Assembly: GCA_037143175.1 (NCBI GenBank)
Contig: JBAWZF010000009.1
Coordinates: forward strand, 1,959 to 65,958
DNA length: 64,000 nucleotides
Direction: 5' to 3'
DNA from: a bacterium
GTDB lineage: Bacteria; Verrucomicrobiota; Kiritimatiellia; CAIKKV01; CAITUY01
The notes under the pieces are model-generated. The model saw nothing but the letters and a program-made list of their open reading frames with translations, made no database searches and was not told where the DNA came from. The translations under genes and the position numbers were made by a program. Positions within the stretch are counted from its first letter, which is position 1. The number at the start of each line of letters is the position of its first letter. Of this stretch, positions 28,118 through 58,270 are shown piece by piece.

Positions 28118-28665
28118 GGCGTGGCCTCTTCTATGCCTACTGGGACGTACTTTTTGTCAAGCACCAGCAGTACTTGATCAAATTTCACTCCGTCCTGGCG
28201 ATTCCGGATGGTGAGTACGTGCTTTCCCTTGGCCAGGTTCATTTGCTTCAAGCGAGGGGGGGCCTTGACCCAGTGCCAGGTGAGAAAGGTGGCATCCTTG
28301 CCAAAGGTGAACGGAAGCGAGCCGTCGAGAGACAGAGTGAAGGAACTGTTGCATTCGCTAATCCAATAGACGCGACACCACAGGGTGTATTCGCCGGGTT
28401 CAACAATTTCGAACGGGAGTTTGGCCTCGCCCTGATTGACTTTTGGTGGGTTGCCGGCACCCTTTGGAATTTCCAGATATCTGCCTCCTGACGCTCCCGC
28501 CACAACCGACGCCGAGTTGGACGTGGCGTCTACTATGCGCACGGGCTCCACAATTCCTTCGCTTGATTCAGCCTCCCTACAGATGCGGTCACCTGCGGAG
28601 GCTGGGTATTGTGCCAGAAGCAGGGAAAGCATTCCTGAAATCACGAGTATTAAGCGCTGTTTCAT
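28114..28665 (-). CDS. Secreted stand-alone beta-sandwich protein, carbohydrate-binding-module-like
   Basis: 183-aa ORF. Signal peptide MKQRLILVISGMLSLLLAQYPASA. CBM6/35-like pattern EAE...ASGGRYLE...GEYTLWCRVYW...LAKGKHVLTI...VKFDQVLL. Confidence 0.55.
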   Translation of the reverse strand: MKQRLILVISGMLSLLLAQYPASAGDRICREAESSEGIVEPVRIVDATSNSASVVAGASGGRYLEIPKGAGNPPKVNQGEAKLPFEIVEPGEYTLWCRVYWISECNSSFTLSLDGSLPFTFGKDATFLTWHWVKAPPRLKQMNLAKGKHVLTIRNRQDGVKFDQVLLVLDKKYVPVGIEEATP

Positions 28666-28677
28666 AGTGAACTCCTT

Positions 28678-29823: not shown

Positions 29824-29826
29824 GAA

Positions 29827-32648: not shown

Positions 32649-32649
32649 G

Positions 32650-35000: not shown

Positions 35001-35803
35001 GTATCGGTCAGGTCAATGACCTTGCGTTCCCAGTCCAGCCCATAGAAACTATGGTTGGCGCCGGTAATCTCATGGACTTCCTGAGGGATGCCGAGTCGTG
35101 AACAAAGCGATGTGTAGCCAGCCTTGGAGGCCGCCGTCTCCGGATCATTTGTGCCGTGGATACAAAGTATGCGGCCCTTGAAGTTGCGCAGTTGGTTTAA
35201 CCAGAGAGTTTCATCATGGATTTCCCTCTGTCCGGCGGCCTCCCTGGCTCCCACCGCTTTTTTTACCATCCTGACATTGATCCGAAACGTCAGGAGTTTG
35301 CGCCACGTTTCCAGCCGTAGCAACTTCCGGCCGTAAGTGCGCAGGGCATCCAGCGATTTGCGGTTCTTGCTGGAGGTGTCGCGCATGGGCCCCATCGGTT
35401 CGGGCGACCAGAGTGCCAGTCCACCAACCCGCGCGTCGGTTGCCGCCGCGCCGATCGCGACTTTGCACCCGGAACAGATGGCCAGCAGAACCACCTGGCG
35501 TTCGGGATACTGTGGCAAGATAAAGTCCAAGGCGGCCGTTGCGTCTGCGATCATCGATCGGATAGAGGCATCAGCAGTAGTGCCGCCGCTATCGCCACGT
35601 CCGCGGAAATCGAAACGCAGGCAGACACAGCCGCGGGCGGTCAACCGTCGAGCCATATGGACGAACATCCGGTGCGGGCCGAGGCGTGAGCCGGCCCACC
35701 CGTGTAGGAACACGACCAGTGGTCCCGCGCGATCCGGCTCCGGCTCATGAACGATGCCATAAAGAGTCTGGTCGTTTACCTTGAAATGGATGGGGTGTTC
35801 CAT
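34982..35803 (-). CDS. Alpha/beta-hydrolase-fold protein with apparent Cys nucleophile (exosortase-A-associated hydrolase-1-like?)
   Basis: 273-aa ORF. LVVFLHGWAGS oxyanion region; nucleophile elbow VVLLAICSGCKVAIGAA (small-x-Cys-x-small); GTNDPE (acid); GANHSFY (His). Confidence 0.75.
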   Translation of the reverse strand: MEHPIHFKVNDQTLYGIVHEPEPDRAGPLVVFLHGWAGSRLGPHRMFVHMARRLTARGCVCLRFDFRGRGDSGGTTADASIRSMIADATAALDFILPQYPERQVVLLAICSGCKVAIGAAATDARVGGLALWSPEPMGPMRDTSSKNRKSLDALRTYGRKLLRLETWRKLLTFRINVRMVKKAVGAREAAGQREIHDETLWLNQLRNFKGRILCIHGTNDPETAASKAGYTSLCSRLGIPQEVHEITGANHSFYGLDWERKVIDLTDTWMVSR

Positions 35804-35811
35804 GGAATGTG

Positions 35812-36639
35812 TCAGGTATTAGAAGTGAGCAAATTAATCCAAGCCTTGGTCTTATCGATTAACGATGGACACTCCACCAGTCCGACCAGATTCCAGAACG
35901 GATCTTCTTCTGCTGAAATAAGGTCAATGTGGGCCCCGCCGTCAAGGCTTGCCTCCTTGAGTGCTGATAATTCCCGTGGCCCCGCACCGCTTGGCGCAAT
36001 ATGAACCAGCAGTACTTTGCGGGGCCTCTGTGCCGCCGCCTTGATCAGATCAATTGTGGTGATGTCATGAAACAGCCGCGAGTTTACGGCATAGCCATCC
36101 AGATCTATCGGCCGGCCATCTTCCAAATCTTTCAGCAAGGTTGCCCGCGTCACGCGGCTCTGCCCGAACGTCACCATTTCCCGAACCAATTTTCGGCGGA
36201 GTTCATAATCAAAATGACGGCGGCCATGGATAATGGGTTCCCAAAGTACGGTAAATTCGAGGGACTCAATCATTTGGGCCGCTTCAAAAGCCAGTGACGC
36301 GCCTAGACGCAAGCCCAGCAATCCGAGCCTGTTCAATCCAATTTGTCCGGTCATAAAACGAGCGGCGTGGGTGATATCTTCACGCCAGTCCGGGCAGGAG
36401 AAATCCTTAAAATCACCAGTACTATCACCGCAGCCGCAATAATCGAAACGCAGGACGGCGCAACCGTTGGCGGCAAAGGCTCGGGCGGCGTCAACCATAA
36501 TCCGGTGGGAACTCTTGCGCTCCTCGAAGAGCGGGTTACACATCACCATTCCGCACCGAATCTCTCCTTCCGGACGGTAGAGCATGCCGGACAAGGTGTC
36601 ACGCCCTCTTGGAATCAGAACGGATTGTTCCATACTCAT
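35812..36639 (-). CDS. Alpha/beta-hydrolase-fold protein with non-canonical elbow (exosortase-A-associated hydrolase-2-like?)
   Basis: 275-aa ORF. Fold-typical VMCNPLFEERKSSHR...LRFDYCGCGDS. The elbow reads LGLLGLRLGASLA, with Arg where the Ser nucleophile normally sits. Confidence 0.7.
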   Translation of the reverse strand: MSMEQSVLIPRGRDTLSGMLYRPEGEIRCGMVMCNPLFEERKSSHRIMVDAARAFAANGCAVLRFDYCGCGDSTGDFKDFSCPDWREDITHAARFMTGQIGLNRLGLLGLRLGASLAFEAAQMIESLEFTVLWEPIIHGRRHFDYELRRKLVREMVTFGQSRVTRATLLKDLEDGRPIDLDGYAVNSRLFHDITTIDLIKAAAQRPRKVLLVHIAPSGAGPRELSALKEASLDGGAHIDLISAEEDPFWNLVGLVECPSLIDKTKAWINLLTSNT

Positions 36640-36896
36640 TCGGCAGTCATTTTGCTGCCTACAAACGCGGCCAGAGCGGCGACAGTTGCGAAATGTTTAA
36701 TGCTGAACTCCTCGTCGGGGATGACGATGCCAAATTCTTCTTCAATGCCTACCACCAATTCGAGCAGGCTCACCGAGTCCACTCCATAGTCGTCCATGAG
36801 CGATTTGTTGTCTTCAATCGCTTCTGGGGCGATTTTGAGAAAAAGCCTTGATGCGATCATGCGTTTCAGCCGGTCTTCAATGTTTTCTTCAGTCAT
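36636..36896 (-). CDS. Acyl carrier protein
   Basis: 86-aa acidic ORF with phosphopantetheine attachment motif DDYGVDSVSLLELV. ATGA overlap with the downstream hydrolase. Confidence 0.85.
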   Translation of the reverse strand: MTEENIEDRLKRMIASRLFLKIAPEAIEDNKSLMDDYGVDSVSLLELVVGIEEEFGIVIPDEEFSIKHFATVAALAAFVGSKMTAE

Positions 36897-36997
36897 AGTA
36901 ATACTCCTAAAGGAAGTCTCGCACGTTGTGGCGGCACTTTCAATACTAACGGTTGATGCGTAAGTATTCAGGTCATCCCGGTGCGCGGTATTGCCTG

Positions 36998-37870
36998 CTA
37001 TTCCGTCACTGGCAGCGTTGTTACCTCCGTCAGCTTTCCGACACGCAGGCGGCGCCAGGGCGTTTCCTCATCGGAAGGACCTTGCTCACTCTCGAACATG
37101 GACTGCCAGCGTTGCTTGAATAGCAGGCCATGGCGGATAATCAAGCCAGTGTTGGGTAGCGTTTGTGTTCCGGCCGTGGTGATACTTTCAAAATGATACA
37201 TCTCCACCGTGGGGTCAAAGACAATGCGATGACCCTGGCTCCGGACGCGGTAACAAAGATCAAAATCCTCGAATTCGACGGGGTTAAAAGTCTCGTCAAA
37301 GCCTCCGGCATTCTCAAACAGTTCGCGTCGGATCATGAAACAGGCGCTGATCAGGCACTGGACATCCTGTTTTTGGCTGAAGCGGGGATCGTCCCGTCGT
37401 TCGCCCCGGCCGCGAAATAAGACCCGGCCAGTGCGTGAGATGCCGACTCCAGCACATTGGATCAGATGCGGGGGCAGGGGGTACACCAATTTTGGGCCTA
37501 CTATGCCGACAGACGGGTCGGCATCAAGTGTCGATCCCAGTGTTGCCAGCCAGCTCCGGCTGCGGAGCGCCACGTCATTATCAATAAACACCAGCCGGGA
37601 TCCGGACGCTATGGCGGCACCCTGGTTTCGGGCTGTGGAACATCCGACATTCCCCTTGTTGCGTATCAGTCGGACGTTAACACCTGCGGTTCTGGCCATA
37701 GCGGTCAACTCGTCGATTACCCAATCAGGCGTATGATCAGTCGAGCCGTTGTCCACGACGATCAATTCCCACTTTGCGCCTATGGACGCCAGTAATGACG
37801 GCAGGCAGAGACGGGTGTAATCTAGCTTGTTGTGAGTCAGTGTGACCACTGAAGTGAGTGTGAGTGGCAT
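36998..37870 (-). CDS. Glycosyltransferase family 2
   Basis: VVTLTHNKLDYTRLCL, VVDNGSTDHT and FIDNDV (DxD) motifs. TAATG overlap with the upstream E1 beta gene. Confidence 0.85.
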   Translation of the reverse strand: MPLTLTSVVTLTHNKLDYTRLCLPSLLASIGAKWELIVVDNGSTDHTPDWVIDELTAMARTAGVNVRLIRNKGNVGCSTARNQGAAIASGSRLVFIDNDVALRSRSWLATLGSTLDADPSVGIVGPKLVYPLPPHLIQCAGVGISRTGRVLFRGRGERRDDPRFSQKQDVQCLISACFMIRRELFENAGGFDETFNPVEFEDFDLCYRVRSQGHRIVFDPTVEMYHFESITTAGTQTLPNTGLIIRHGLLFKQRWQSMFESEQGPSDEETPWRRLRVGKLTEVTTLPVTE

Positions 37871-38853
37871 TACTCCTCCACCAGTTTCCGGGCCGCTTCA
37901 AATATCCGGCTTCGATCCGGTATGGCGGCTCGCTCGAGCGCCGGACTGGCGGATAACGGGATATCAGGTGTAGCCAGTCGGAGGAGCGGGGCATCGAGAT
38001 AGTCATAGACAGTCTCGGAGATGCGGGCGCTGATTTCGGCTCCGAATCCGCCGGTTCGACAGGACTCCTGAACAATCAGGGCGCGATGCGTCTTTTTAAC
38101 TGAGGCGATGATCGTATCCATGTCCAGCGGGATTAATGACCGAAGATCGATAACCTCGGCACTGATTCCCTGTGTGTTTAAATCCTCCTCCGCCGCACGC
38201 CCGGCTTCTGCGCTCATCCATGACCAGGCGATCAAGGTGATATCCGTTCCTGCCCTGGCTATTCTTGCCTTGCCCAGTGGGATTACGGTATCAGGTGCTT
38301 CGGATACTTCCCCGCGACAGCCGTAAAGCAATTTATGCTCCATGAAAACAACCGGATTATCATCCCGGATCGCGGCCTTCAGCAGCCCTTTGGCATCGGC
38401 TGGCGTTGACGGCGCCACCACCTTCAGGCCGGGAACATGCGTGAACCAGGCTTCCAGACTTTGCGAGTGGGTGGGACCATAGCAGCGTCCGCCGCCGCCC
38501 ACGGTACGTAGCACCATAGGACACCTGGCCTGTTTTCCTAGAACATAGTGCAACTTGGCCGCCTGGTTCACCATTTGATCCACCGCCAGGGTGATGAAAT
38601 CCATGAACATGATTTCCACCACCGGGCGGGAACCCGCCAGCGCCGCACCTATGGAGGCGCCCACGAATCCCTGCTCGGAAATCGGGGTATCACGAACGCG
38701 CTCGGCGCCGAACTTGTCAAGGAGCCCGCGTGTGACCCCGAAGGCCCCGCCATAGATACCGATGTCCTCGCCCAGGAGAAAAACATCCGGGTTGATTATC
38801 ATTTCCTCTTGCAGGGCTTCCCGCAGGGCTTCGGTATAGCTGATTGTTCTCAA
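37870..38853 (-). CDS. 2-oxoacid/acetoin dehydrogenase E1 component, beta subunit
   Basis: 327-aa ORF. LLGEDIGIYGGAFGVTRGLLDKFG..RVRDTPISEQGFVGASIGAA, typical of transketolase-like E1 beta. Confidence 0.9.
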   Translation of the reverse strand: MRTISYTEALREALQEEMIINPDVFLLGEDIGIYGGAFGVTRGLLDKFGAERVRDTPISEQGFVGASIGAALAGSRPVVEIMFMDFITLAVDQMVNQAAKLHYVLGKQARCPMVLRTVGGGGRCYGPTHSQSLEAWFTHVPGLKVVAPSTPADAKGLLKAAIRDDNPVVFMEHKLLYGCRGEVSEAPDTVIPLGKARIARAGTDITLIAWSWMSAEAGRAAEEDLNTQGISAEVIDLRSLIPLDMDTIIASVKKTHRALIVQESCRTGGFGAEISARISETVYDYLDAPLLRLATPDIPLSASPALERAAIPDRSRIFEAARKLVEE

Positions 38854-39803
38854 GCGAACACTCCTTCTTCAAGCGTGGCTGGATCGGGATCAGGGCTCTG
38901 CTTGGCGAACCGTACCGCTTCAGTCACAATGGCACGCGCTTCGCGACGGAGGTGCCGGTCGTTTTCCTGGTTTAGTGCGCCGCGCTTGATCAGTACAGCC
39001 CGGAAACGCCGGATGGGGGCGCGAGTCATCCATAACGCTTCCTCTTCCCGTGAGCGATAGATGCGCTGATCGCCGCGTGAGTGGCCGGAGTGGCGATAGG
39101 TCTTGCATTCCACCAGCGTAGGACCCTCTCCGTTACGAGCGCGGATACAGGCGGCCTGCATGACCTCGCGGACTGCCAGGAGGTCGTTGCCATCCACCAC
39201 GACGCCTGGAAAGCCATAAGAGGCGGCGCGATCGGCTATGTAGGGTATGGGGATCGCCTTGTCCACATGGGTTGACATAGCGTACAGGTTGTTCTCGCAG
39301 ACATACACGACGGGCAGTTTCCAGAGGCCGGCCAGATTCAGGGATTCGTGGAAAGTTCCCTGATTGGATGCGCCGTCGCCAAAAAAACACACCGCGATCT
39401 TTCCCGTATCCTTCATTTTTGCCGACAGTGCGGCGCCGGTGGCGATGGGAATACTGCCGCCGGTAATGCCATTGCCTCCGAGAAATCCCATCCTGTAGTC
39501 GGCCATAAACTGGCTGCCTCCGCGGCCCCGTGAATAGCCTGTTGCCTTGCCGAAAATCTCGGCCATGATCCGGCGTGGGTCTCCGCCACGGGCGATGAAA
39601 TGGCCATGCCCCCTGTGGGTACTGGTAATGTAATCCCCTTTTTTCAGCACACTGCAGACGCCCACCGCCACCGCTTCCTGGCCGGTGGCCGGATGTGTCG
39701 TGCCGCGAATGACGCCATCTGAGAAGAGTCTTTCCACCTTCTCTTCGAAGAGGCGCATGACCAACATGGTGCGATACCAATTGAGCATTTGTTGAGTTGT
39801 CAT
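38850..39803 (-). CDS. 2-oxoacid/acetoin dehydrogenase E1 component, alpha subunit (AcoA-like, ThDP-dependent)
   Basis: ThDP motif GDGASNQGTFHESLNLAGLWKLPVVYVCENN. AcoA-like THRGHGHFIARGGD and GRGGSQFMAD. Start set at MTTQQML (ATG at 39803), 10 nt after the upstream stop. Confidence 0.9.
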   Translation of the reverse strand: MTTQQMLNWYRTMLVMRLFEEKVERLFSDGVIRGTTHPATGQEAVAVGVCSVLKKGDYITSTHRGHGHFIARGGDPRRIMAEIFGKATGYSRGRGGSQFMADYRMGFLGGNGITGGSIPIATGAALSAKMKDTGKIAVCFFGDGASNQGTFHESLNLAGLWKLPVVYVCENNLYAMSTHVDKAIPIPYIADRAASYGFPGVVVDGNDLLAVREVMQAACIRARNGEGPTLVECKTYRHSGHSRGDQRIYRSREEEALWMTRAPIRRFRAVLIKRGALNQENDRHLRREARAIVTEAVRFAKQSPDPDPATLEEGVFA

Positions 39804-39813
39804 AGAAATGATT

Positions 39814-40848
39814 TCAGGTTCCGGAGTCCATGCCACGCACAGCCAGACACACCACGTTACCGCCCGGATCAATGGAGTTGACCAGTGTGACACCGTGGTT
39901 TTTTGCATTCAATGCGGCGATCACGCGTAACGCCGCGTCGGCGCCCGACGTCTCGCCCAGTATGGCCTTGAGGAGGTTCACGGGCATTCGTTCCGGTCTG
40001 TCGCCTTGGAATTCCCTGATGGCAGCCATTTCCACCGGATCAAGATCACCGCCCGGGGTTGCTGCTGAAAGGCCTGTTACCTCGTCTTCCCTTTGGGCGA
40101 GACTGCGGCAGGCAAGATGCATGGCCTTACGGATGTCTCCTCCCGTCATACCGCCGCCCAGAATCTCTCCCTGAACAACGGCACCGCGTTGCCGGGCGTG
40201 GTCGGCATTCTCCAGCACGACTATTCCGGCGCCTTCGCCCGGCATGAATCCTTGTTGGTCATCATTCAATTCAGTTCCCCGCAGGAGCATCGGGCTCAGG
40301 GCTTCGAACCCGCCGGCGAAGACCAGCGGGCACCGGCCCGTCCGGACCATGTCATAAGCCTGCAAAAGTGCGCCGGATGAAGACGTGGCCCCGGATGATA
40401 AATTGAGATGATAGCCATTCAGGCCATACTCGATTGCCAGCAGGCTGATGGTGGTGTTGGCGTAGGCATGGGGGAAGAGTATCGGTTTGACAAAGCGGGG
40501 GCCTTTCTCGAGGTAATCGGTGAAGAAGAGCTGGGTGCTTGCGAGACAGCCGGTTGCGGAACCCAGAATCAAGCCCATGGAGGAGCGATCCATATTCTTA
40601 AGGTCAAGATTGGCATCTTCAATCGCCAGGCTCATGCCCGCAAAGGCGAGTTGTGAAGCGCGGTCCAGATAGGCTTTTTCAGTTTCCAGGTAGTCCACCA
40701 CGTTGAAATCGCTGATCTCGGCGGCAAATTGTCCGATGCCGCTCCGGTAGCGGCGTACGCCCTCCATGAACGCTTCTCGTCCGATGCCGATGGAACTGAC
40801 TGGTCCCACCCCTGTAATGAACACGCCTTTATCTTCCCTGGTTTTCAT
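39814..40848 (-). CDS. Ketosynthase-fold protein lacking the Cys-His-His triad (KS-beta/chain-length-factor-like partner)
   Basis: 344-aa thiolase-fold ORF (VFITGVGPVSSIG N-terminus). Active-site positions read GATSSSG (Cys to Thr), AATPGGD (His to Thr) and KAILGETSG (His to Glu). ATGA overlap with the upstream KS. Confidence 0.8.
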   Translation of the reverse strand: MKTREDKGVFITGVGPVSSIGIGREAFMEGVRRYRSGIGQFAAEISDFNVVDYLETEKAYLDRASQLAFAGMSLAIEDANLDLKNMDRSSMGLILGSATGCLASTQLFFTDYLEKGPRFVKPILFPHAYANTTISLLAIEYGLNGYHLNLSSGATSSSGALLQAYDMVRTGRCPLVFAGGFEALSPMLLRGTELNDDQQGFMPGEGAGIVVLENADHARQRGAVVQGEILGGGMTGGDIRKAMHLACRSLAQREDEVTGLSAATPGGDLDPVEMAAIREFQGDRPERMPVNLLKAILGETSGADAALRVIAALNAKNHGVTLVNSIDPGGNVVCLAVRGMDSGT

Positions 40849-42035
40849 TCTGCCCTCCGGAAAATCACGGCCGCATTACAGCCGCCGATGCCCGCCGAGT
40901 TTGACAGGACAGCCCGGAGGTCCATGCTCTTTTTGACATTGGCGACACAGGGCAGATCGCATTCAGGATCCGGATCGCGGTAGTTTGTGGTCGGCGGGAT
41001 CACCCGGTTCCTGATCGACAGGATCGAGGCGATGGCCTCGATACTGCCGGCTGCGCCCAGCATGTGGCCGGATGACGACTTGATTGAGGTAATGGGCATC
41101 GCATAGGCGTGCGTACCGAATACTTTTTTGATGGCCTGTGTCTCGGTGACATCATTGGGTTTGGTTCCGGTGCCATGGGCGTTGATGTGGTCAATTTCCT
41201 CCGGTTTCATTCGTGCGTCGTGGAGTGCCATCTGCATGACGGCGGCTGAACCCGCTCCCTCTTTGGCCGGAGCGGTCATGTGAAAGGCGTTGTTATTGGC
41301 CCCGTATCCCGCGATCTCGGCATAGATCGTGGCCCCGCGTTTGCGGGCGGATTCCGCGTCTTCAAGCAGCAGGGCTCCTGCGCCTTCACTGAACAGCGTA
41401 CCGGAGCGGTTCTTATCAAACGGGCGAAGCGCGTCTTTGGTCATGGTTCGCAGGGCACTCAACCCGCTCCAGGCGAATCGGGACAGGGCGTCGTACCCGC
41501 CTGTCAGCACGGCTTTGGCATGTCCATGCCGGATGAGGTCCATCCCGTAACCGATCGCCGCCGTGCCTGAGGCACACGATAGAGACAACACGAAGCGGGG
41601 GCCGCCGAGATGCCATTGTTTGGCGACATGGTCAGCGCAGGACTGGAACAAAGATTCTGAATAGTCTGACGGTTGTGCCGTGTCCTTGCCTGACAGGTCG
41701 GTAATGACATTTTCGCCGGAGATGATGCCGCCGAAATTAGTGGCAAGCACCACTCCGGTTTCGGCCGGGTCAGGGACGCCATCCCGAAGCGCCTCTGCCG
41801 CCGCCGCCAACATGAACTGCGTGGCAAGGTCGGTATTTGCGCCTGTTGCGGCGCAGTCCTGTGGCAGGTGAAAATCGCGAATTTCTCCGCCCCGTGTATA
41901 GGCGAAATCCTTGAGGTCGAACCGGGTCAGGTCCCCGATGGCCGATTCACCGTTGCATAAGGCCTCCCACAGGCGCGGCACTCCGATTCCATACGGTGAT
42001 ACAGCACCCATCCCTGTGACGACGATTGTTTTCAA
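40845..42035 (-). CDS. Beta-ketoacyl-ACP synthase (FabF/KS-alpha-like), catalytically complete
   Basis: Active-site SLSCASGTAAIG (Cys), INAHGTGTKPND (His), KSSSGHMLGAAG (His). Likely TTG start giving MKTIVVTGMG, overlapping the FabG stop (TTGA); the ORF-track GTG start is at 42059. Confidence 0.9.
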   Translation of the reverse strand: MKTIVVTGMGAVSPYGIGVPRLWEALCNGESAIGDLTRFDLKDFAYTRGGEIRDFHLPQDCAATGANTDLATQFMLAAAAEALRDGVPDPAETGVVLATNFGGIISGENVITDLSGKDTAQPSDYSESLFQSCADHVAKQWHLGGPRFVLSLSCASGTAAIGYGMDLIRHGHAKAVLTGGYDALSRFAWSGLSALRTMTKDALRPFDKNRSGTLFSEGAGALLLEDAESARKRGATIYAEIAGYGANNNAFHMTAPAKEGAGSAAVMQMALHDARMKPEEIDHINAHGTGTKPNDVTETQAIKKVFGTHAYAMPITSIKSSSGHMLGAAGSIEAIASILSIRNRVIPPTTNYRDPDPECDLPCVANVKKSMDLRAVLSNSAGIGGCNAAVIFRRAE

Positions 42036-42775
42036 ATGTGCAGCCCTCCATCCACACACAGAACTTGGCCGGTGATGTAGTGCGCTTCGTCTGAGGCGAG
42101 GAAGGCGACGACACGGGCGACTTCATCGGGTTGACCGAAGCGACCCTGGGGAATGCGCTCCAGTTGCTTCGTTCGGCGTGTTGCCGACATGCCGGCAATC
42201 AGGTCTGTTTCGATAATACCGGGGGACACGGCGTTAACCGTGATGCCAGAGGGAGCGAATTCCCGCGCCACGGATTTTGTCAACCCGATCAGGCCGGCCT
42301 TGGCTGATGCATAATTGGCGCGCATCATGTCGCCCATCAGTCCGGCGTCAGAGGAGATGTTGATGATGCGTCCGGACTTCTGCCGGATCATCTCGCGGCC
42401 CACCGCCTTGATGCAGTGATAGGCCCCTTTCAAATCAACGTCCAGCACGTCGTTCCACTCCTCGTCCTTCATGAAGGTGACGTAGTTATCGCGGATAATT
42501 CCCGCGTTATTTACCAGGATATCCACCCGTCCCAGTGCTTGCTTTGTCTGTTCAATCATAGCTTTGACCTGATCCAGATGACGCACATCAGCCTTGAAGG
42601 GAAGGGCCTGTTGGCCAAAACCGCGGATAAGGACGGCGACTTCCTCGGCGGCCGCCGCCTGATTAACGTAGTTCACCACCACATGGACGCCTTCGGTTCC
42701 CAGTGCCAATGCCACGGCCCGGCCAATACCACGCGCACCACCGGTTACAATGGCCACTTTACCTTTTAGTTTCAT
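42032..42775 (-). CDS. 3-oxoacyl-ACP reductase (FabG-like SDR)
   Basis: VTGGARGIGRAVALAL, NNAGI and catalytic YASAKAG (YxxxK); 247 aa. Confidence 0.9.
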   Translation of the reverse strand: MKLKGKVAIVTGGARGIGRAVALALGTEGVHVVVNYVNQAAAAEEVAVLIRGFGQQALPFKADVRHLDQVKAMIEQTKQALGRVDILVNNAGIIRDNYVTFMKDEEWNDVLDVDLKGAYHCIKAVGREMIRQKSGRIINISSDAGLMGDMMRANYASAKAGLIGLTKSVAREFAPSGITVNAVSPGIIETDLIAGMSATRRTKQLERIPQGRFGQPDEVARVVAFLASDEAHYITGQVLCVDGGLHI

Positions 42776-42788
42776 GAGATGTTTTGGG

Positions 42789-43274
42789 TTACTTCTTCTC
42801 CATCAGGTATTTGTTCAGCACGTTTTCAGTGATTACCTCCACCTTGTACTTAGCCTGCACCAGTGCGAGATCCGTTCCGTGTTCACGGGCGAGTCGGCGT
42901 GCGGCGGGAGTGGCCCGGAGTGCGCCGGTCACGGCTCCGGCTTGTTTGCCTTTTTCCAAGGAAACGTTTTGAACCTTCCGTGTTAGCGTCTCCATCAGAC
43001 GGCGGTTAGAGGCGCTCACATCAGGCAAACTGTCGATCGTGTCTCCGATAAGGGCGACAACGTATCCTGCCGGGAGACTACTCTTCACTTCGGCCAGTGT
43101 TGCAAGCAACACTCCCGAGCGTGGTGCTTCCAACTCGAATGCCACCTTACTAGTGGACAGTTCGATCAGCGGATCTCCCTTATTGACGTACTCTCCCTTT
43201 TTTTTCAGCCAGGCGGTGATTGCCTGTTCTTCGTCGTTTTCGGTCAGTTTTGGGATTTTGACTTTTGTAACCAT
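42789..43274 (-). CDS. Free-standing lipoyl(biotinyl)-domain plus peripheral-subunit-binding-domain protein (E2 without catalytic domain)
   Basis: 161-aa ORF. Lipoyl-domain pattern KIPKLTENDEEQAITAWLKKKGEYVNKGDPLIELSTSKVAFELEAPRSGVL, with SKV in place of DKA. PSBD pattern LRATPAARRLAREHGTDLALV...ITENVLNKYL. The ORF then stops 13 nt before fabG-like. Confidence 0.8.
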   Translation of the reverse strand: MVTKVKIPKLTENDEEQAITAWLKKKGEYVNKGDPLIELSTSKVAFELEAPRSGVLLATLAEVKSSLPAGYVVALIGDTIDSLPDVSASNRRLMETLTRKVQNVSLEKGKQAGAVTGALRATPAARRLAREHGTDLALVQAKYKVEVITENVLNKYLMEKK

Positions 43275-46200
43275 TATTTATTTTCCTGTTCTCGGCCGAA
43301 AATCACTACATGCAGCGGCATGGATAGATTGCCAGCTTTATCCCGTACGCGCAATGTCAGCCATCCGGTTTCTTTAACCGATGCGGGCAAGGAGTAGGGC
43401 GTCAGACTCATGCCGTTTGTCTGTAGTGTGTTTTCCCATTGGATTCCGGCGATACCACTCTCATCATAGGCGTCCATTTCTATCAGGTCAGTGGGACTCC
43501 ATGGGGCAAAGACAAATACGCTTTGCAGTTGCTGCCGGAAGCGTTTGTCATTGCCGTCAGAGATGAAGGTCAGGTTTTTTACTACAAACTGGTTCGTAGA
43601 TCCTGCCGGCAACTGGTTTTTGAGAAGTTTGCCCGCATCAATGATGAATGATTGCCAGGCATTTGAGGCCCAAGTCAAGGGTCGGGGAGGGGCCTGGAGA
43701 ATGGCGTCCGCTGGAATTTCAGACAGACTAAATTTAAACGTATTGGTCGTTTCAGTCTCCAGAATGATAGCGACGCGGGGATTTTCGTTAGAGATCAATA
43801 CGGGGTGTCGCAGTTGAAACGCGAGAAAGGGGTAACGCTGAACGTTCCATTTTGGGGAAAACACATGCGTCATGGCTCCGGTTGAAGTTCCGGATACCAG
43901 CGAAAGATAGGGAGCTTCGCCCAGTTGGCATTCCAAGGTTGTAGTCCCGCCGGCTAGTGAGGTAAAGGGAGGATTAGTTTCTGCCATTCTTGCGCTGACC
44001 GTTGTCCAGAATATGTTCGAGGGATAAGAGGCAGACAGCACTGTTGGGGGCGTATGATCGGCAGCGTAATTGATCCGGCGAGGGAATTCCAGGTCGGGCA
44101 AGACGTTCCCCGCACCATCCTTGATTTCCGACAGGATGATTTTAAAGGCTTGGCCGGAGTCCGCCTGATTCAATTGTTGGCGGAAAATAAGTGACCAGTT
44201 CAACGCGAGGATGTCGTAATTAGTTGAATGGCTTAGGGTTGAGCCCAGCGTGTGAGTGATGGGGACGATGGTATCGTTCCATTTGAGTTTAAGCGCTTCC
44301 ATATCCAGAGGGGCCTCGCCATCCGTCTTGAATTTTACGCACAGAGAGGAACCGTTGCCCATGGCGTTGGTGGCTGGTTCAAAGGTACCGGTAGCGGATG
44401 GAGGCGTTCGGTCTATCAAGAATGGGATCGATGTGACCGGCGAAACGGCGTCCCTGTAATTCGCGGCTTTGAGGAAAATGTGCGCCAAGCCATTTCTCAG
44501 GGATTTGATGTCAGGCATAGTCTGTTGATTGTTAGGGATGTCGCGCCAAATGAGATCCGCGCATTGGGCGGAATTCAGGGACGGGTAGTCCTCCGGGCCG
44601 TTTCGGAGTGCCATTTGAACCTTTGTGACACCCTCAAAATCAAAGTAGTGCGGGGTGAAGGCCAGTTGTTCGTCCTTTGCCACGGAGGGTCCCGCCATCA
44701 GGTCGTCCAAGCTGAGTTCCGTGTATAGGCCGGTTTGGTCAACACTGTTGACCGAGCCGAACCGGAGTCCGCTCGCGTTGAATACCCCCGGTTGGCAGGG
44801 CTTCTCGATCAATGCATCGGTGACTAGTCCCCACCAGGTGTGCCACTGGTTGTCCAAGATCAGGTTGCCGGCACCACGAACCCCGCGCGCCGGTCCGTCC
44901 GGTTCGCTCAGGCGGACGGGGCCAACCGACCCACAGTCGAGCGACACTCGGGCCATGGATGTTCCGCGATACCGGAACTGCACCACTGGATACCGGGCGA
45001 ACGGCAGGGGAGCCTCGAAATAGCTACTCAGGCGTTGCGCAGTGCCCTGATTATATGTGGTTAGGAAACTTTGTTGGACGGGGTCGCAATCGGATATCAG
45101 GGTGCGTTGAGAGGGTTGTCTACCGCAGACTTTACGCGATTCGAATGATTCAATCAGCGGGCTGATGCCATCCAATTTCAGGAGCATTGGGGGTGTGCGC
45201 TGCGTGGCGTCAGCCCATTTCAAGGCGAATACACAGGTGTTGGTACCATGGACAACTTTGACTATGAGATTCGAGACGGGTCCGGTGGCGGCGTCGCTCA
45301 CACGTGGCACAGAGGCCTCCAGAGTATTGGGTGGCAGAAATCGTGTGTAAGCACTGGTTGATGCAATGGTGACGGTTGCGCCGGCAAGGGCACGGTCGGG
45401 TGAACCGGATGTTGACCGGAATTCGATGGTGTCTGGTTGCTGTTTGCTCCATGCACATGAGAGAGGCTGTGTCGTTGCGGCATGGTGCGGGATGGAGGCG
45501 AAGTTTTTGATCGCGTAGCCTTCGCCAGGCCCGTTGCCTGTCAGCCCTTGTACGATGTAACCGGCTTGTAGGTTGCCCAATCCTTCAATCTTGACGAGGA
45601 CGTTGGAGTCGTTGATAGATGCGGCCCAGTCTGCAACAGGGATCCAAGCCGTTGCGGTCGTCCAGTTTCCGTTGGTGTGCCATGCAGTAATTCCATTGAT
45701 GGGGGCGCTTCCTGGCACAGCCGTTTGTCCTGTTAGTTGATACTTGCCCTTTGAAAAACTTTCACCCGATAATTGGTGGAAATAGAATCGTTCCGGTGTA
45801 TAGGTTCCCTGGGTGTTGCGGCGGCCGATGGAATAATACAGATTGAACTGACCCCGATCGGTTCGTTTGACGTCGAAACGCCAGCCTGCAAGACTGGAAT
45901 AGGGGACTGGGGGGAGTGTGCAGCGGGTCAAAAGGGAACCGCTGCCAAGAATGCTTGTTACCGCGAAATAGGGACTGGAGTTGGTTGGAGTCATCCAGTC
46001 GAGGCGAGCCTGTGAGACCGGGTCATCAACTTCCCACGAGTCCCGATCCATGGGGCCCGTTGTGCGGTCACTGTTTGAGGCGAGCGGTGTTGAGGGATGG
46101 TTGGTGGTCGCCGGGGTGGGGCCGGCAGGGGTGAGAATACTGCGTAGGGCTACCGGCTTGAAGGTGACGGGTCGCGGGGTGACTGATTCCGCGGCGATCT

Positions 46201-49003
46201 TGACTCGTGCCACCATGATGGAATTCATGAACGTCCAGACGCCCATGGAGCCTTCGCTGAGTGGCTCAGGATCGGTGGCGCTGAAGATCAGTTCGTTGTC
46301 GAAATAAAACTCAAGTTTCTTGCCGGTGCGACGGAACTTAATATAGTACCAGGCCCCATGAACATCGCGATTAGTACCTATCAGCGGGAGATGCACCTTG
46401 CGTTTGCCACCCTCCCTGACACGCGGGGCACAGTAAGCGTCGGACTGGGTCAACATTTCACCGTTACGATAAAGCTTGGTGTAGAGACGTGACAGGTCAT
46501 AATCCCAGCCGGAACAGGTAACGGTGTACCCTTGGCTCGGGGTTGTATCGCGATTCATGACCGTCAGGTTAAAATCCCCGGGGGTGCTCTCGTAGGCGTG
46601 GCGGGTGCCAGCGTACATTTCCACGCAGAAGTCACCACGGAACCGGTATTTGCTCCAGATTGCTGCCAGGGTATTGGAGGATTCTCCGTTCATGTGCGAC
46701 CAGCGCGGATCGCAGTTGAACCGGTTGATGATCTCCCAGCGGCCGCCGTTGCGAGTCCATTCGTGGAGTGACTCCTTAAAGAGGAAATCCTTTACGTTGT
46801 ACCGTTCCACCAGACTGGAGGCCAACTTTGCCGTGGAAAAGCCTTTGATCATAATGTGGCGCCCTTGTAATGGCGCGGGCAAGGAGTGTTCAAAGAGCAA
46901 CTCTTTTCCACTCGTCAGCCAGATCCATAGTCCCTCTGCGTGAATGGTGTAGCCAACGACATTATTGGTCGCCAAACCAACGAAGCCTGTGATGCGATTG
47001 GTGGGGATGGCGGCGACAGGGGCTATCGATGTCGTCAGTTCTGAGCCTTGTTTTATCGAAAGGATCTGATTCGTGACGGTAACCACCCATTCGCCGGTCG
47101 TGGCACCGTCCGCCACGCCTAAATGAACCGTGGAATTGTCGACCAGCGGCATATGCACTGACACGCGTCCGAAGACGTCGCCTTTATACCAGACGGTGCC
47201 ATTGGTCACATCGTTCCACTGGCCTTCGGGGGATGACCAGTGGCGCATGAAATTATCAGTAACGAAGATGGTGTTCTTTTCAAACTGATCCGTGTAAAGA
47301 TCGGACCGCTCGAAATTATACTCAGGATGGGCAATTTGCACTTTGTTGTCCGGCCCGACATAGAGCCCTGAGGCTCCTCCGACGGGTGTTGGAGTGTGAT
47401 GCACAAGAACCAGTTCCTTGTTCCGATAACACCGAAGTTCGTTTCCTGATGTGGCATCACACATGAGGTTGATGGTTTCAGGCGTATCCGCCGTCAAGGG
47501 GAACCGTGGCAGACTCAACTCCTTTAGAGTGGTGGCGTTGGTGGGGCTGACGGTTTCGAGTCGAAACGTCTCGACGGCGGCGGTGCGGCGGCAGGTAAAG
47601 CGCAGGTAAGGGTGATTACTGCTGACATAACCGGCAATGAGGCCGATGTTACAGGAAGCATCGAGAGATGTGAACTCTGTGGAGAAAACATGCGCTCCAT
47701 GAGAAGTGGCCCCGACAATCAACCATTGCGGAGCACTGGACCGGGGAGGTGAGAGAAAAGGGGTCGCCCGAGGCGCAAAGAGGCTGAAGAATCCGCGGCG
47801 GGGAAAGAATTGCCCGTTTTCGGCCACCGTGTGGCGATGGATGTCATTCAACCCGAGAAAGTCCAGATCGTGATTCGAGTGAGCGGTAACGTCGTCGAAA
47901 AGCAGCGGGACGTCCGAATCGGCGAACAGCCCGAAGCGCCCGCCCACCGGCAGTTCTGCGGGAATGTCTATGATCTTGGTTTTGTCGACAAAGCACTGTA
48001 TCCGATTCTGGAAGGTGCGAACCTTAAGCCTGACCCATTGCCCGTTCATGATTTCGGTGGTGGCAGCCGCCAGTTCGGTGCGTGAGGTGGCGTTGGAAAA
48101 ATCAGTGTTCCAGAGGCTCAAACGGACGGTATCGGAATCATCGCCTGGTTGAACGGTGAAGGCATGGTATCCCCCCGAGTCGGTGCAGTCGAACACCAGC
48201 CCTCCCTCGCCATAACCGATTTGCAAGGCTCCTTCAATTGTATAGGAGTCGTAGAAGTCATAGCCGGTTATCAGAACGGCATTGGTGCCGGAGCCCTGCA
48301 ACGAGTAGAAGTTGGGGCTCATGGAGGCGGTGGGCTTGCGTTTGGCTTTTTCGTTGGTTTTTTCGTTGGCTCTGGCATTAGACCTATCCTTGATTCTGCG
48401 AGGTTGGCCTGGAGTAAAGTCGTCCACCACGGAATGCAGGTCCCATATGCCAGATTGCACTTCCCATGCGGCCAGTTCATTTTCGTCGCCTTCGGACACT
48501 AGAAAATCATCGTGGAAAACGAAGTCGTCTGTCTTTTGGAAGCGGGGTTCCATCTTTAGTGTGGTGGGCAGAGTATCGGACGATTGGTAAACGATGGCGG
48601 GAGGGTGGAATGGTGCGGGCAACACGATGATCGGTCGGTCCCCGATGTAGATGCTCCAGGTTTCCTGCCTGAACTTGATTGTCACTTGGATGGACTCCCT
48701 GTTGCCGGTGGGAAATGTATCCAAATTGAACTGCGATACATCAATGGGAACCTGGGGATAACAATCTTTGGGTTCAAACTGAATAAAAGGCTTTTTGGGG
48801 TTCAGATTCAGGATTACAGAGTTAATGGAATTCGTGGGGGTCAGTCGGAGACGCAGTCCGTTGTCAGCATTCCAGCGGGCGGTTAGTGTCAGATTGCCAG
48901 AGGGATACATGACGCGGGCGCGTTCGTTCCATTCTTGTCGTTCTGCAGAACAGGACAGTAGATAAGCAAACAAAAACAGTGATATTAGTGCGAGTCTCTT
49001 CAT
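43274..49003 (-). CDS. Giant secreted (possibly lipoprotein) multi-domain protein with LamG/DUF1080-like jelly-rolls and Ig-like modules
   Basis: 1909-aa uninterrupted ORF. Signal peptide MKRLALISLFLFAYLLSCSA. Jelly-roll-like segments at about aa 165-375 and 735-937 (W..G.W...; NGQWVRLKVRTFQNRIQCFVD; GAWYYIKFRRTGKKLEFYFDNELIF). Ig-like segments begin D-x-TPP and end D-x-AGN. Its stop overlaps the next start (TAATG). Confidence 0.85.
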   Translation of the reverse strand: MKRLALISLFLFAYLLSCSAERQEWNERARVMYPSGNLTLTARWNADNGLRLRLTPTNSINSVILNLNPKKPFIQFEPKDCYPQVPIDVSQFNLDTFPTGNRESIQVTIKFRQETWSIYIGDRPIIVLPAPFHPPAIVYQSSDTLPTTLKMEPRFQKTDDFVFHDDFLVSEGDENELAAWEVQSGIWDLHSVVDDFTPGQPRRIKDRSNARANEKTNEKAKRKPTASMSPNFYSLQGSGTNAVLITGYDFYDSYTIEGALQIGYGEGGLVFDCTDSGGYHAFTVQPGDDSDTVRLSLWNTDFSNATSRTELAAATTEIMNGQWVRLKVRTFQNRIQCFVDKTKIIDIPAELPVGGRFGLFADSDVPLLFDDVTAHSNHDLDFLGLNDIHRHTVAENGQFFPRRGFFSLFAPRATPFLSPPRSSAPQWLIVGATSHGAHVFSTEFTSLDASCNIGLIAGYVSSNHPYLRFTCRRTAAVETFRLETVSPTNATTLKELSLPRFPLTADTPETINLMCDATSGNELRCYRNKELVLVHHTPTPVGGASGLYVGPDNKVQIAHPEYNFERSDLYTDQFEKNTIFVTDNFMRHWSSPEGQWNDVTNGTVWYKGDVFGRVSVHMPLVDNSTVHLGVADGATTGEWVVTVTNQILSIKQGSELTTSIAPVAAIPTNRITGFVGLATNNVVGYTIHAEGLWIWLTSGKELLFEHSLPAPLQGRHIMIKGFSTAKLASSLVERYNVKDFLFKESLHEWTRNGGRWEIINRFNCDPRWSHMNGESSNTLAAIWSKYRFRGDFCVEMYAGTRHAYESTPGDFNLTVMNRDTTPSQGYTVTCSGWDYDLSRLYTKLYRNGEMLTQSDAYCAPRVREGGKRKVHLPLIGTNRDVHGAWYYIKFRRTGKKLEFYFDNELIFSATDPEPLSEGSMGVWTFMNSIMVARVKIAAESVTPRPVTFKPVALRSILTPAGPTPATTNHPSTPLASNSDRTTGPMDRDSWEVDDPVSQARLDWMTPTNSSPYFAVTSILGSGSLLTRCTLPPVPYSSLAGWRFDVKRTDRGQFNLYYSIGRRNTQGTYTPERFYFHQLSGESFSKGKYQLTGQTAVPGSAPINGITAWHTNGNWTTATAWIPVADWAASINDSNVLVKIEGLGNLQAGYIVQGLTGNGPGEGYAIKNFASIPHHAATTQPLSCAWSKQQPDTIEFRSTSGSPDRALAGATVTIASTSAYTRFLPPNTLEASVPRVSDAATGPVSNLIVKVVHGTNTCVFALKWADATQRTPPMLLKLDGISPLIESFESRKVCGRQPSQRTLISDCDPVQQSFLTTYNQGTAQRLSSYFEAPLPFARYPVVQFRYRGTSMARVSLDCGSVGPVRLSEPDGPARGVRGAGNLILDNQWHTWWGLVTDALIEKPCQPGVFNASGLRFGSVNSVDQTGLYTELSLDDLMAGPSVAKDEQLAFTPHYFDFEGVTKVQMALRNGPEDYPSLNSAQCADLIWRDIPNNQQTMPDIKSLRNGLAHIFLKAANYRDAVSPVTSIPFLIDRTPPSATGTFEPATNAMGNGSSLCVKFKTDGEAPLDMEALKLKWNDTIVPITHTLGSTLSHSTNYDILALNWSLIFRQQLNQADSGQAFKIILSEIKDGAGNVLPDLEFPRRINYAADHTPPTVLSASYPSNIFWTTVSARMAETNPPFTSLAGGTTTLECQLGEAPYLSLVSGTSTGAMTHVFSPKWNVQRYPFLAFQLRHPVLISNENPRVAIILETETTNTFKFSLSEIPADAILQAPPRPLTWASNAWQSFIIDAGKLLKNQLPAGSTNQFVVKNLTFISDGNDKRFRQQLQSVFVFAPWSPTDLIEMDAYDESGIAGIQWENTLQTNGMSLTPYSLPASVKETGWLTLRVRDKAGNLSMPLHVVIFGREQENK

Positions 49004-49195
49004 GAACTGAATTGATCACCCAAGTAAGGTTTATTAATTTAAACTAATCATATAACGGGGTCAAGGATGCGTGTCACCCAAAACTACGGGAGATTTCATA
49101 AAAGCCAATCCCAAACACCAGAAAGATCATGTTTAGCTTGTAGTCACATAACTAGGAGCGTATCTTTATAGTAGATACACGAGGAGATGAATAGC
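49004..49195. promoter_or_regulatory. Non-coding region upstream of the giant gene (putative operon promoter)
   Basis: 192-nt AT-rich gap (TTATTAATTTAAACTAATCATATAAC...). It is the only sizeable non-coding sequence upstream of the 18-gene minus-strand operon. No boxes assigned. Confidence 0.3.
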
Positions 49196-49340
49196 ATGAT
49201 CACAAAAGTCCAATTGCCCGAAACGTGGCGATATCGTCTGGCTTTCGTTCACTCCGCAGGCTGGTCATGAGCAGGCGGGCCACCGTCCCGCATTGGTGCT
49301 TTCCCCAGAGTCCTATAATCGCAAGGTTGGCCTTGCCTTG
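49196..49340 (+). pseudogene. MazF/PemK-family toxin remnant (frameshifted and 3'-truncated)
   Basis: ATG at 49196 gives MITKVQLPETW. After a +1 shift, the frame starting at 49227 reads GDIVWLSFTPQAGHEQAGHRPALVLSPESYNRKVGLAL. This matches the conserved MazF N-terminal core (GD.....F.P..G.EQ.G.RPA.VLSP..YN...G). Similarity ends at about 49340, with no PITS-type continuation. Confidence 0.55.
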
Positions 49341-57239: not shown

Positions 57240-57258
57240 GGATGGGAGTGGGTTAGAA

Positions 57259-58260: not shown

Positions 58261-58270
58261 GCTTAACCTG

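Follow-up and report, generated by a model that had tools for sequence, protein, structure and literature searches.

A giant protein of fixed architecture, predicted to be exported, is linked to a free-standing lipoyl carrier at the head of a ketosynthase and glycosyltransferase operon in Kiritimatiellia

In Vibrio cholerae, RbmC and Bap1 are secreted, non-catalytic multi-lectin proteins whose genes lie beside polysaccharide synthesis genes, and in the naphthyridinomycin- and quinocarcin-type pathways hybrids of E1 and lipoyl-E2 components pass two-carbon units to carrier proteins. To our knowledge, no matrix or capsule lectin is coupled to a lipoyl carrier or to a ketosynthase/chain-length factor (KS/CLF) system. 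The gene described here, called BIG, encodes a protein of 1909 amino acids (aa) and lies in a stretch of 64,000 nucleotides (nt) of contig JBAWZF010000009.1 (assembly GCA_037143175.1) from a bacterium of the Kiritimatiellia; the whole of this stretch is referred to as the window. BIG heads a compact operon of 18 genes on the minus strand (26846-49003, with intergenic gaps of -95 to +101 nt), and is directly followed by LIP, which encodes a lipoyl carrier, and by genes for acyl-chain and glycan metabolism. The organism is regarded as a freshwater-lake bacterium, because the sequence of the window occurs in lake metagenomes.

Our tentative reading of BIG is that of a scaffold which binds, without catalysis, an unvarying glycoconjugate made by the cell itself; this ligand is probably anionic and would most likely be the acyl-glycan or glycolipid of the operon headed by BIG. 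This reading starts from the export signal, the folds of the domains, the absence of any known catalytic domain, the distribution of the family, and the tight and conserved linkage between BIG and LIP; from these we infer the ligand, a site of action past the periplasm, what chemistry the operon carries out, and any physical association of BIG with the operon's product. What is new is the combination of a fixed 12-domain architecture with a reciprocal coupling to a lipoyl carrier that has no catalytic domain, plus KS/CLF; the components are of known kinds.

The reading frame of BIG starts with ATG and comprises 1909 codons, and at its junction with LIP (AAATAATGG, reading …AAA TAA TGG…) a TAATG is formed, in which the TAA stop codon of BIG and the ATG of LIP have one base in common. 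A first-pass annotation of the window, made from the letters alone, had described a single 5.7-kb open reading frame (ORF) overlapping the lipoyl-carrier gene in this way, and the ORF and the junction sequence bear it out. BIG is considered a real gene because more than 160 full-length, colinear homologues exist. Its N-terminus, MKRLALISLFLFAYLLSC followed by SAERQEW, is a short leader of the cleavable signal-peptide type, and a short hydrophobic leader is found in 30 of the 34 homologues with complete N-termini; from this conserved leader, BIG is predicted to be exported through the Sec route, in agreement with the first-pass annotation. A scan of the whole protein revealed no transmembrane-like or hydrophobic window of 19 residues anywhere in BIG. 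The sequence LLSC/SA (aa 15-20, the slash marking the predicted cleavage point) had been left ambiguous between a lipobox and a site for signal peptidase I. A lipoprotein is recognized here by a lipobox of the form [LVI][ASTVIL][GAS]C that closes the signal peptide and is kept in orthologues. BIG does have LLSC at aa 15-18, but its Cys18 is common only to the closest relative (90% identical), a lipobox-like motif of any form occurs in 6 of the 34 homologues, and AxA-type sites are found in most, which makes the lipobox an unlikely interpretation for the family on the basis of these N-termini.

The linkage between BIG and LIP was followed across 85 loci related to the window, in which the operon proteins were located by tblastn. 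LIP lies directly downstream of BIG on the same strand in 51 of the 69 loci with enough downstream DNA, and LIP together with the FabG-like short-chain dehydrogenase/reductase (SDR) in 40 of the 66 loci whose downstream DNA extends for 1.5 kb or more; where it extends for 6 kb or more (49 loci), KS/CLF genes are present in 21 and the gene for E1 in 17. The gap between BIG and LIP has a median of 10.5 nt and measures 50 nt or less in 43 of 48 junctions, 18 of which overlap, mostly as ATGA. All of the genes upstream of BIG vary among the loci, unlike LIP on the downstream side. In a neighbour-joining tree of these giant proteins, the linkage to LIP occurs on both sides of the midpoint root, and the full LIP–SDR–KS–E1 set does likewise. 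In the clade of the window, the linked genes run on into a complete operon of KS/CLF, E1, ACP, glycosyltransferase, flippase, and ligase genes. A reverse look-up with three members of the LIP family, picked solely for their long contigs, found in all three cases an ORF immediately upstream, of 1888, 2009, or 1987 aa. Judged from gene order, the link between BIG and LIP appears to be both ancient and reciprocal. The first-pass annotation had asked whether homologues of BIG always adjoin lipoyl-carrier and KS genes: they mostly do, and homologues widespread without these neighbours, the finding it had named as speaking against its proposal, were not encountered, but the adjacency is not invariable, as one clade and several distant relatives lack the neighbours. 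A link to lipoyl proteins in general was also considered when a gene for GcvH was seen upstream of BIG in the locus L001; it was rejected as a coincidence, because GcvH is found in that locus only.

LIP matches the lipoyl domain PF00364 (3.3e-12) and the peripheral-subunit-binding domain PF02817 (1.1e-6), as is characteristic of E2-type lipoyl carriers, and no C-terminal acyltransferase (2-oxoacid_dh) domain was found in LIP or its relatives (54 neighbours and the best 120 database relatives). The carrier looks functional, because the lipoyl-accepting lysine, K43, which resides within an E-x-T-T-D-K-A motif, is invariant in 54 of 54 LIP sequences, and the sequence RATPxARRLA is conserved. The 54 neighbour proteins are 153-191 aa in length. 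The LIP family comprises at least 710 clusters, and its best 120 members are 151-188 aa long and contain only PF00364 and PF02817.

For structural modelling, BIG was split at a variable junction at aa ~1171-1181, and each half was predicted by AlphaFold2 (AF2) with an alignment of 43-46 homologues. The model of aa 20-1178 has a predicted local distance difference test score (pLDDT) of 85.3 and a predicted template modelling score (pTM) of 0.87, and the model of aa 1172-1909 has a pLDDT of 87.8 and a pTM of 0.81; the pTM values suggest a rigid packing of the domains. Both halves are all-beta in these models, in which BIG consists of approximately 12 domains, namely 5-6 jelly rolls of the ConA/LamG type, 2 sandwiches resembling carbohydrate-binding modules (CBMs), and 4 immunoglobulin-like (Ig-like) modules, numbered D1 to D12 in Table 1. 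In other proteins, domains of these types serve as spacers or in the binding of carbohydrates. Both of the jelly rolls that had been named in the first-pass annotation, D2 and D5, are supported by AF2 and Foldseek along with weak Pfam matches, and the beta-rich segments noticed between them are modelled as the jelly rolls D3 and D4. The K/R/N-rich insert described for the first jelly roll is located at aa 201-224 and is disordered in the model (pLDDT <50). The linker that follows D5 varies in sequence and is Pro/Ala-rich in the homologues.

Profile comparisons with hhalign relate D2 to D3 (probability 94.7%), D8 to D11 (92.6%), and D9 to D12 (93%), and detect no similarity between D6 and D8 or D11. 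Three repeats with an RYP-type core had been proposed, at aa 1040 (GWRFDVKR), 1336 (ARYPVVQFRYR), and 1722 (QRYPFLAFQLR). The latter two are genuine and the first is not, because D8 and D11, which contain them, are homologous CBM-like domains, whereas D6, which holds GWRFDVKR, is related to neither. The motifs that were thought to begin and end Ig-like modules are present as well (DRTPP at 1531, DHTPP at 1649, DGAGN at 1629, and DKAGN at 1888), but the segment of aa 1649-1888 is modelled as a jelly roll of ~180 aa followed by a small Ig-like domain, and not as one Ig module.

The two half-models were compared with the PDB by Foldseek, and the top 50 matches were inspected for each half. The best match of the N-terminal half is neurexin-1 alpha LNS1-6 (E 3.6e-14), and its other matches include laminin LG domains, tandem galectins, CBM66 (TMt 0.66-0.69), and the DUF1080 protein BT3469 (4jqt). 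The C-terminal half matches Ig-like arrays (CSF-1R, the S-layer protein Sap, and SiiE) and sandwiches of the CBM22, CBM28, and CBM6 types. At the level of the fold, the modelled N-terminal half belongs to the ConA-like lectin/LamG jelly-roll superfamily, as it superposes on LNS, LG, galectin, and CBM66 structures.

No glycoside hydrolase (GH), polysaccharide lyase (PL), or other catalytic family was detected by Pfam in BIG and 21 relatives, or by NCBIfam, and no catalytic fold appears among the top 50 Foldseek matches of either half, which consist of lectin, CBM, and Ig domains instead. Searches of PDB sequence profiles with BIG gave no significant match, only CBM66-type or chance ones, and the corresponding search with D5 gave no match. 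The assignment of BIG to a known enzyme or carbohydrate-active enzyme (CAZyme) family was rejected on these results. Domain parsing by AF2 and Foldseek had been set beforehand as a test of the first-pass annotation, and the outcome, in which no known GH or PL domain emerged, agrees with its statement that no catalytic motif could be recognized. Two Pfam families are approached without their thresholds being reached. PF06439 (3keto-disac_hyd, or DUF1080) scores 16.4 bits in BIG (E 0.01, aa 238-350), below the gathering cut-off of 26.8 bits, and is matched at E <= 0.05 by 19 of 21 family members, the best E being 1e-9. PF19763 (DUF6250) scores 23.2 bits over profile positions 114-162 of 165 (aa 883-931), below its cut-off of 26.9 bits, and matches 20 of 21 members, with a best E of 2.4e-8; BIG is therefore assigned to neither family.

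Sorting signals are likewise lacking, as the first-pass annotation had reported. A PEP-CTERM motif, a type IX secretion (T9SS; Por_Secre_tail) domain, and an autotransporter beta-barrel tail were not found by Pfam, by NCBIfam, or by inspection, and the C-terminus (...RDKAGNLSMPLHVVIFGREQENK) contains neither a PEP motif nor a hydrophobic window. BIG is thus not regarded as an autotransporter, as a T9SS or PEP-CTERM cargo, or as a membrane-anchored protein, since there is no tail and no hydrophobic segment. A relationship to alpha-2-macroglobulin was also rejected: the CxEQ thioester motif of that family was not found in BIG, the models are all-beta, and the Foldseek matches to alpha-2-macroglobulin are of low probability.

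The first search for homologues returned 50 proteins of 1.7-2.06 thousand amino acids (kaa), every one of them annotated as "hypothetical", and the layout of the BLAST high-scoring segment pairs shows that all 50 are full-length and colinear with BIG; the architecture remains fixed over relatives of 30-90% identity. A coverage of about 60% had raised the possibility that only the N-terminal half is shared, which this layout disproves. The apparent coverage arises because an extra domain of ~70 aa splits the alignments; it lies between D6 and D7 (the aa 1171/1181 junction, window ~45464-45490) in most homologues and is missing in the clade of the window protein and its near relatives (1852-1910 aa), where it appears to have been lost. 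In a scan of one genome per species, relatives of BIG were found in at least 169 species genomes. The best 80 of the 169 are all metagenome-assembled genomes (MAGs), most of them assigned to Kiritimatiellia, Lentisphaeria, or Victivallales and the rest labelled only "Verrucomicrobia", "PVC group", or "bacterium"; BIG is usually single-copy, and a few of these 80 genomes have two copies. A more distant tier contains a 2214-aa protein (WP_307259800.1) of Oligosphaera ethanolica, a cultured species, and proteins of MAGs labelled Planctomycetota. The distant 2.2-kaa giants of O. ethanolica (locus L086, JAUSVL010000001.1, 785440-812084) and of L087 stand alone, and the neighbours in Oligosphaera are CBM9, GH16, and sialidase-like genes. 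The BIG family is large, unnamed, and found mainly in Kiritimatiellia and Lentisphaeria, and no published account of the family or of this type of operon was found, including in the paper on Pontiella exopolysaccharide.

D5 is the best-conserved region of BIG, with a mean identity to the query of 0.63, compared with 0.27-0.47 in the other domains. Within D5, 28% of the positions are at least 95% conserved. Invariant Arg, His, Tyr, and Trp residues are numerous, and R761, H770, E795, R801, Y826, R861, R863, R879, H882, and Y886 belong to the conserved set. An exhaustive phmmer search with D5 yielded 896 representatives at E <= 1e-3, of which 166 reached E <= 1e-30, and nearly all of the best 150 matches are proteins of 1.8-2.3 kaa in which D5 occupies a similar position, so that D5-type sequence is almost confined to giants of this size. 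The domain is conserved among lake, rumen, marine, and sediment lineages. Stand-alone D5-like proteins (P0225 and P0226) were also seen, in a fragmented gene context that is uninformative for function.

Downstream of LIP, the operon encodes, in order, the FabG-like SDR, a KS, a CLF-like KS, the alpha and beta subunits of a pyruvate dehydrogenase-type (PDH-type) E1, a family 2 glycosyltransferase (GT2), and an acyl carrier protein (ACP), followed by two alpha/beta hydrolases, three GT4 enzymes, a MurJ/MOP flippase, a further GT4, a 183-aa protein, and a Wzy_C (O-antigen-ligase-like) protein. The CLF-like KS has neither the active-site Cys nor the HGTGT motif, and the two hydrolases resemble the exosortase-A-associated hydr2 and hydr1 proteins, the first of them matching hydr2_PEP at 2.4e-39, below the cut-off. 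No dehydratase or enoyl reductase was found among the operon genes, and the product could conceivably be a rhamnolipid-like glycolipid or a decoration with a short 3-hydroxyacyl group. The synthesis of an acyl-glycan or glycolipid, and its transport out of the cell, would be in keeping with the glycosyltransferase (GT) and other genes present. The first-pass annotation had assumed biosynthetic genes for a glycan, but the operon is equally a lipid pathway with a type II KS/CLF pair.

In the reading that we tentatively favour, BIG, Sec-exported and lectin-like, would act outside the cytoplasmic membrane, where it would bind and organize a self-made glycoconjugate at the cell envelope. The PDH-type E1 would put a pyruvate-derived acyl unit on the free lipoyl carrier, and the KS/CLF pair, FabG, and ACP would then lengthen and reduce this unit. 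The alpha/beta hydrolases and the GT2 and GT4 enzymes would assemble the acyl-glycan, and the MurJ-type flippase and the Wzy_C enzyme would carry out its export and ligation. The Arg/His-rich and highly conserved D5 would provide a specific site for a probably anionic ligand, and a constant, self-made ligand would be expected rather than a variable food polysaccharide, because D5 is conserved across lineages from such different habitats. A binding role, as opposed to catalysis, is suggested by analogy to the non-enzymatic lectin-type arrays that are the best Foldseek matches of the models.

The upstream side of BIG has been rearranged, since the homology with a 93%-identical relative (L008) ends at 49069, 66 nt upstream of the start of BIG and just past a promoter-like site. 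A divergent tyrosine recombinase gene follows, and no tRNA or Rfam element was found near BIG. Past the integrase lies a gene for a Kdo transferase, whose placement is not conserved in related loci. A secreted alpha/beta hydrolase of the S9/esterase type (~550-780 aa, GxSMGG) precedes BIG on the same strand in 14 loci and in two of the reverse look-ups (L004, L014, L017, L019, L020, L022, L024, L025, L030, L031, L064, L069, L073, L079, L090, and L091); the window has no homologue of it anywhere, and the integrase stands upstream of BIG instead. Elsewhere in the window, the genes of a biotin-dependent carboxylase/decarboxylase (HMGL-like, PYC_OADA, and a biotinyl domain; alpha and beta subunits of an acetyl-CoA carboxylase-type carboxyltransferase) and a set of genes for subunits of complex I (Nuo) provide an ordinary housekeeping context; together they occupy 11440-15290 (-) and 56121-63112 (+).

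Table 1. Positions of BIG, its domains, and other features of the window.
Feature	Position	Strand	Basis
BIG, 1909-aa ORF heading the operon, all-beta protein of many domains, predicted to be exported	43274..49003	-	ORF call and translation, homologues, AF2
Putative signal peptide, aa 1-20 (MKRLALISLFLFAYLLSC/SA)	48944..49003	-	read from sequence
D1, aa 25-141, N-terminal beta-sandwich with conserved W-x-ER...GNL...RW	48581..48931	-	model DSSP, conservation
D2, aa 154-379, DUF1080-type jelly roll with ConA/LamG-type fold	47867..48544	-	model, weak PF06439, Foldseek
D3, aa 392-564, jelly roll homologous to D2	47312..47830	-	model, hhalign
D4, aa 596-739, jelly roll / beta-sandwich	46787..47218	-	model
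D5, aa 745-944, DUF6250-like jelly roll	46172..46771	-	weak PF19763, conservation, phmmer
Linker, aa 945-989, Pro/Thr/Ser-rich, disordered	46037..46171	-	pLDDT <50
D6, aa 990-1171, beta-sandwich holding GWRFDVKR	45491..46036	-	model, hhalign
D7-D12, C-terminal half	43301..45463	-	model, Foldseek, hhalign
D7, aa 1181-1278, Ig-like		-	model
D8, aa 1291-1441, CBM-like		-	model
D9, aa 1449-1531, Ig-like		-	model
D10, aa 1536-1643, Ig-like, TPP...DGAGN		-	model
D11, aa 1651-1832, CBM-like		-	model
D12, aa 1841-1901, Ig-like, DKAGN		-	model
LIP, 161-aa free-standing lipoyl carrier (lipoyl and peripheral-subunit-binding domains)	42789..43274	-	Pfam, NCBIfam
Rest of the operon after LIP	26846..42775	-	Pfam, NCBIfam, KS versus CLF comparison
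Sigma-70-like hexamer pair CTGACC-17-TATGAT in the 3' end of BIG, ~190 nt before the LIP start	43463-43491	-	consensus match only
Promoter-like site TTGACC-17-TAAATT, ~33 nt upstream of the BIG start	49036..49064	-	consensus scan only
Tyrosine recombinase (phage-integrase family), divergent, just upstream of BIG	49293-50465	+	
Kdo transferase (KdtA/WaaA), past the integrase, divergent from the operon	50579-51892	+	
Biotin-dependent carboxylase/decarboxylase and complex I (Nuo) genes, first of two stretches	11440-15290	-	
Biotin-dependent carboxylase/decarboxylase and complex I (Nuo) genes, second of two stretches	56121-63112	+	

Several observations weigh against BIG as a scaffold for the product of its operon, beginning with the fact that its ligand, its location, and that product are all deduced indirectly. 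One clade of ~12 loci (including L001 and L002) is without the BIG–LIP linkage, which appears to have been lost there, and neither near these loci nor near the distant giants (of Oligosphaera and of a MAG labelled Planctomycetota) do carrier, lipid, or GT genes occur, so that BIG can evidently work without such genes next to it. Many loci of Kiritimatiellia keep just BIG, LIP, and the SDR, followed by unrelated genes and without adjoining GT or export genes, an arrangement that is hard to explain if BIG does nothing but bind the glycan of the operon. The available RNA comes from three small lake metatranscriptomes of the same samples, which are tiny assemblies and not quantitative: eight short contigs map to the downstream genes, a ninth (49185-49367) maps between BIG and the integrase, and none lies on the 5.7-kb BIG ORF or across the BIG–LIP junction. 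In rumen RNA assemblies, a few contigs lie inside a homologue of BIG, and there only. The lake and rumen RNA show transcription and argue, if anything, weakly against equal mRNA levels of BIG and the downstream genes, and the hexamer pair in the 3' end of BIG, together with RNA contigs found only on the downstream genes, hints at an internal promoter. The stoichiometric co-expression that the first-pass annotation had deduced from the stop/start overlap is not upheld, common as tight or overlapping junctions are. Such data would suit a linkage that is regulatory or historical only, in which BIG would be a lineage-specific envelope or nutrient-capture protein unrelated to the lipoyl/KS pathway, and the downstream genes would just borrow its promoter or have their own, and the survival of the family in one clade and in distant relatives that lack these neighbours fits as well. 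This explanation seems improbable, however, in view of an adjacency that has been kept over deep divergence (~30% identity) while the upstream side varies, of junctions that overlap or are very short in 43 of 48 loci, and of the presence of LIP beside BIG in all three reverse look-ups; moreover, the RNA that supports it stems from very small assemblies and gives no quantities.

The extreme conservation of D5 would equally fit an active site, and this too counts against a purely binding role, as does the fact that DUF1080-type jelly rolls can be enzymes, which has been proven for single-domain members (PMC8121099; bioRxiv 10.1101/2024.03.25.586180). For both reasons, an exported enzyme stays alive as an explanation, although we hold it to be somewhat unlikely: D5 (DUF6250-like) or D2 (DUF1080-like) would be catalytic, acting as a glycoside or keto-glycoside lyase, a hydratase, a hydrolase, or in the manner of a polysaccharide lyase, the other domains would be CBMs and spacers, and the substrate would be either the cell's own polymer, which would be processed or remodelled, or an environmental glycan. 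A domain far more conserved than the rest is the usual pattern for a catalytic module between CBMs, and several loci without LIP sit amid GH genes, but neighbourhoods rich in CAZymes are the background in these genomes. The Pfam matches of D2 and D5 are partial and sub-threshold (16.4 and 23.2 bits), the top 50 Foldseek matches comprise lectins, LamG domains, and CBMs instead of catalytic jelly rolls such as GH16 or PL7, searching PDB profiles with D5 gave no match, and no catalytic residues could be located.

Alternatively, BIG could be the acceptor of the operon's product, namely an S-layer-like surface protein that is O-glycosylated or lipid-anchored by it, with the disordered Pro/Thr/Ser (Pro/Ala) linker as the target of the Wzy_C enzyme, a ligase of the PglL/WaaL type in this view, or with BIG joined by that enzyme to a dedicated glycolipid. 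The linker itself, the MOP-family flippase and Wzy_C protein at the end of the operon, and the likeness of the C-terminal half to the Ig arrays of S-layer and adhesin proteins (Sap and SiiE) would fit such a role; BIG has no anchor of its own, and anchoring through a ligated glycolipid would therefore explain its co-inheritance with lipid genes. We nevertheless consider this quite unlikely, as no sequon or sorting signal is recognized in BIG, the linker sequence is not conserved, neither the loci with only BIG, LIP, and SDR nor those without LIP have an adjoining ligase or flippase, and the high conservation of BIG is atypical for S-layer proteins. Also distinctly doubtful, in our estimate, is a more specific proposal in which BIG, the free lipoyl carrier, and the FabG-like reductase form an undescribed module of Kiritimatiellia and Lentisphaeria: a pyruvate-derived acyl unit would travel from the PDH-type E1 through the carrier to KS/CLF for the building of a dedicated acyl-glycan or glycolipid, and BIG would be its extracytoplasmic assembly platform or would be covalently anchored by the product.

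In lakes, sediments, oceans, and guts, Kiritimatiellia and Lentisphaeria are widespread as degraders of polysaccharides and producers of exopolymers, and the biology of their envelope has hardly been explored. BIG is a large and highly conserved signature protein of these groups, without a name or a Pfam family of its own and now with confident structure models, and its coupling to LIP points to an undescribed tie between an exported protein and an unusual route of acyl priming, in which a PDH-type E1 and a free lipoyl arm would feed KS/CLF. If this tie is real, the BIG–LIP link would offer a testable entry into how surface polymers are built and organized in these bacteria, and if the module just outlined exists, it would represent a new means of building or tethering a cell-surface layer. 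Were the link only historical, BIG would still make a good marker for phylogeny and merit structural-genomics work, and a distant member is available in a cultured organism, O. ethanolica.

Among the described systems, the E1/lipoyl-E2 hybrids and the exosortase-A cassette (TIGR03100 and TIGR03101) are approached by the window in its PDH-type E1, lipoyl carrier, ACP, and two hydrolases. All scores against the cassette are below the curated cut-offs, and no exosortase or PEP-CTERM protein was found in the window; LIP differs from the hybrids in being entirely without an acyltransferase domain, and a BIG-like protein is present in none of those systems. RbmC and Bap1 have beta-propeller and beta-prism folds and are much smaller than BIG. 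The DUF1080/3-keto-disaccharide hydrolases (PF06439; Bacteroides BT2157, and the JCSG structure 4JQT of BT3469) have a ConA-like jelly roll as D2 does in its model, but the known members, some of which are enzymes, are single-domain proteins of ~200-450 aa, whereas D2 is a sub-cut-off match and one of ~12 domains in 1909 aa. The DUF6250 profile (PF19763) matches the C-terminal strands of D5, partially and below its cut-off, and D5-type sequence occurs almost only within the giants. CBM66 of the Bacillus levanase SacC (TMt 0.66-0.69) and, less closely, CBM22 and CBM28 (TMt 0.48-0.60) superpose on domains of BIG, in which no catalytic CAZyme module is attached to these CBM66-, CBM22-, CBM28-, or CBM6-like units. 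The nearest architectural counterparts are eukaryotic, namely neurexin-1 alpha LNS1-6, laminin LG1-5, and tandem galectins, which are the best matches of the N-terminal half (E 3.6e-14 to 1e-8, probability 1.0). The sequence identity to these proteins is 6-10%, the TM-scores are low because the arrangement of the domains differs, and BIG has no EGF spacers; the likeness is an architectural analogy and no evidence for common descent or function. What the modelled N-terminal half of BIG would have in common with them is their construction as strings of non-catalytic, ligand-binding jelly rolls.

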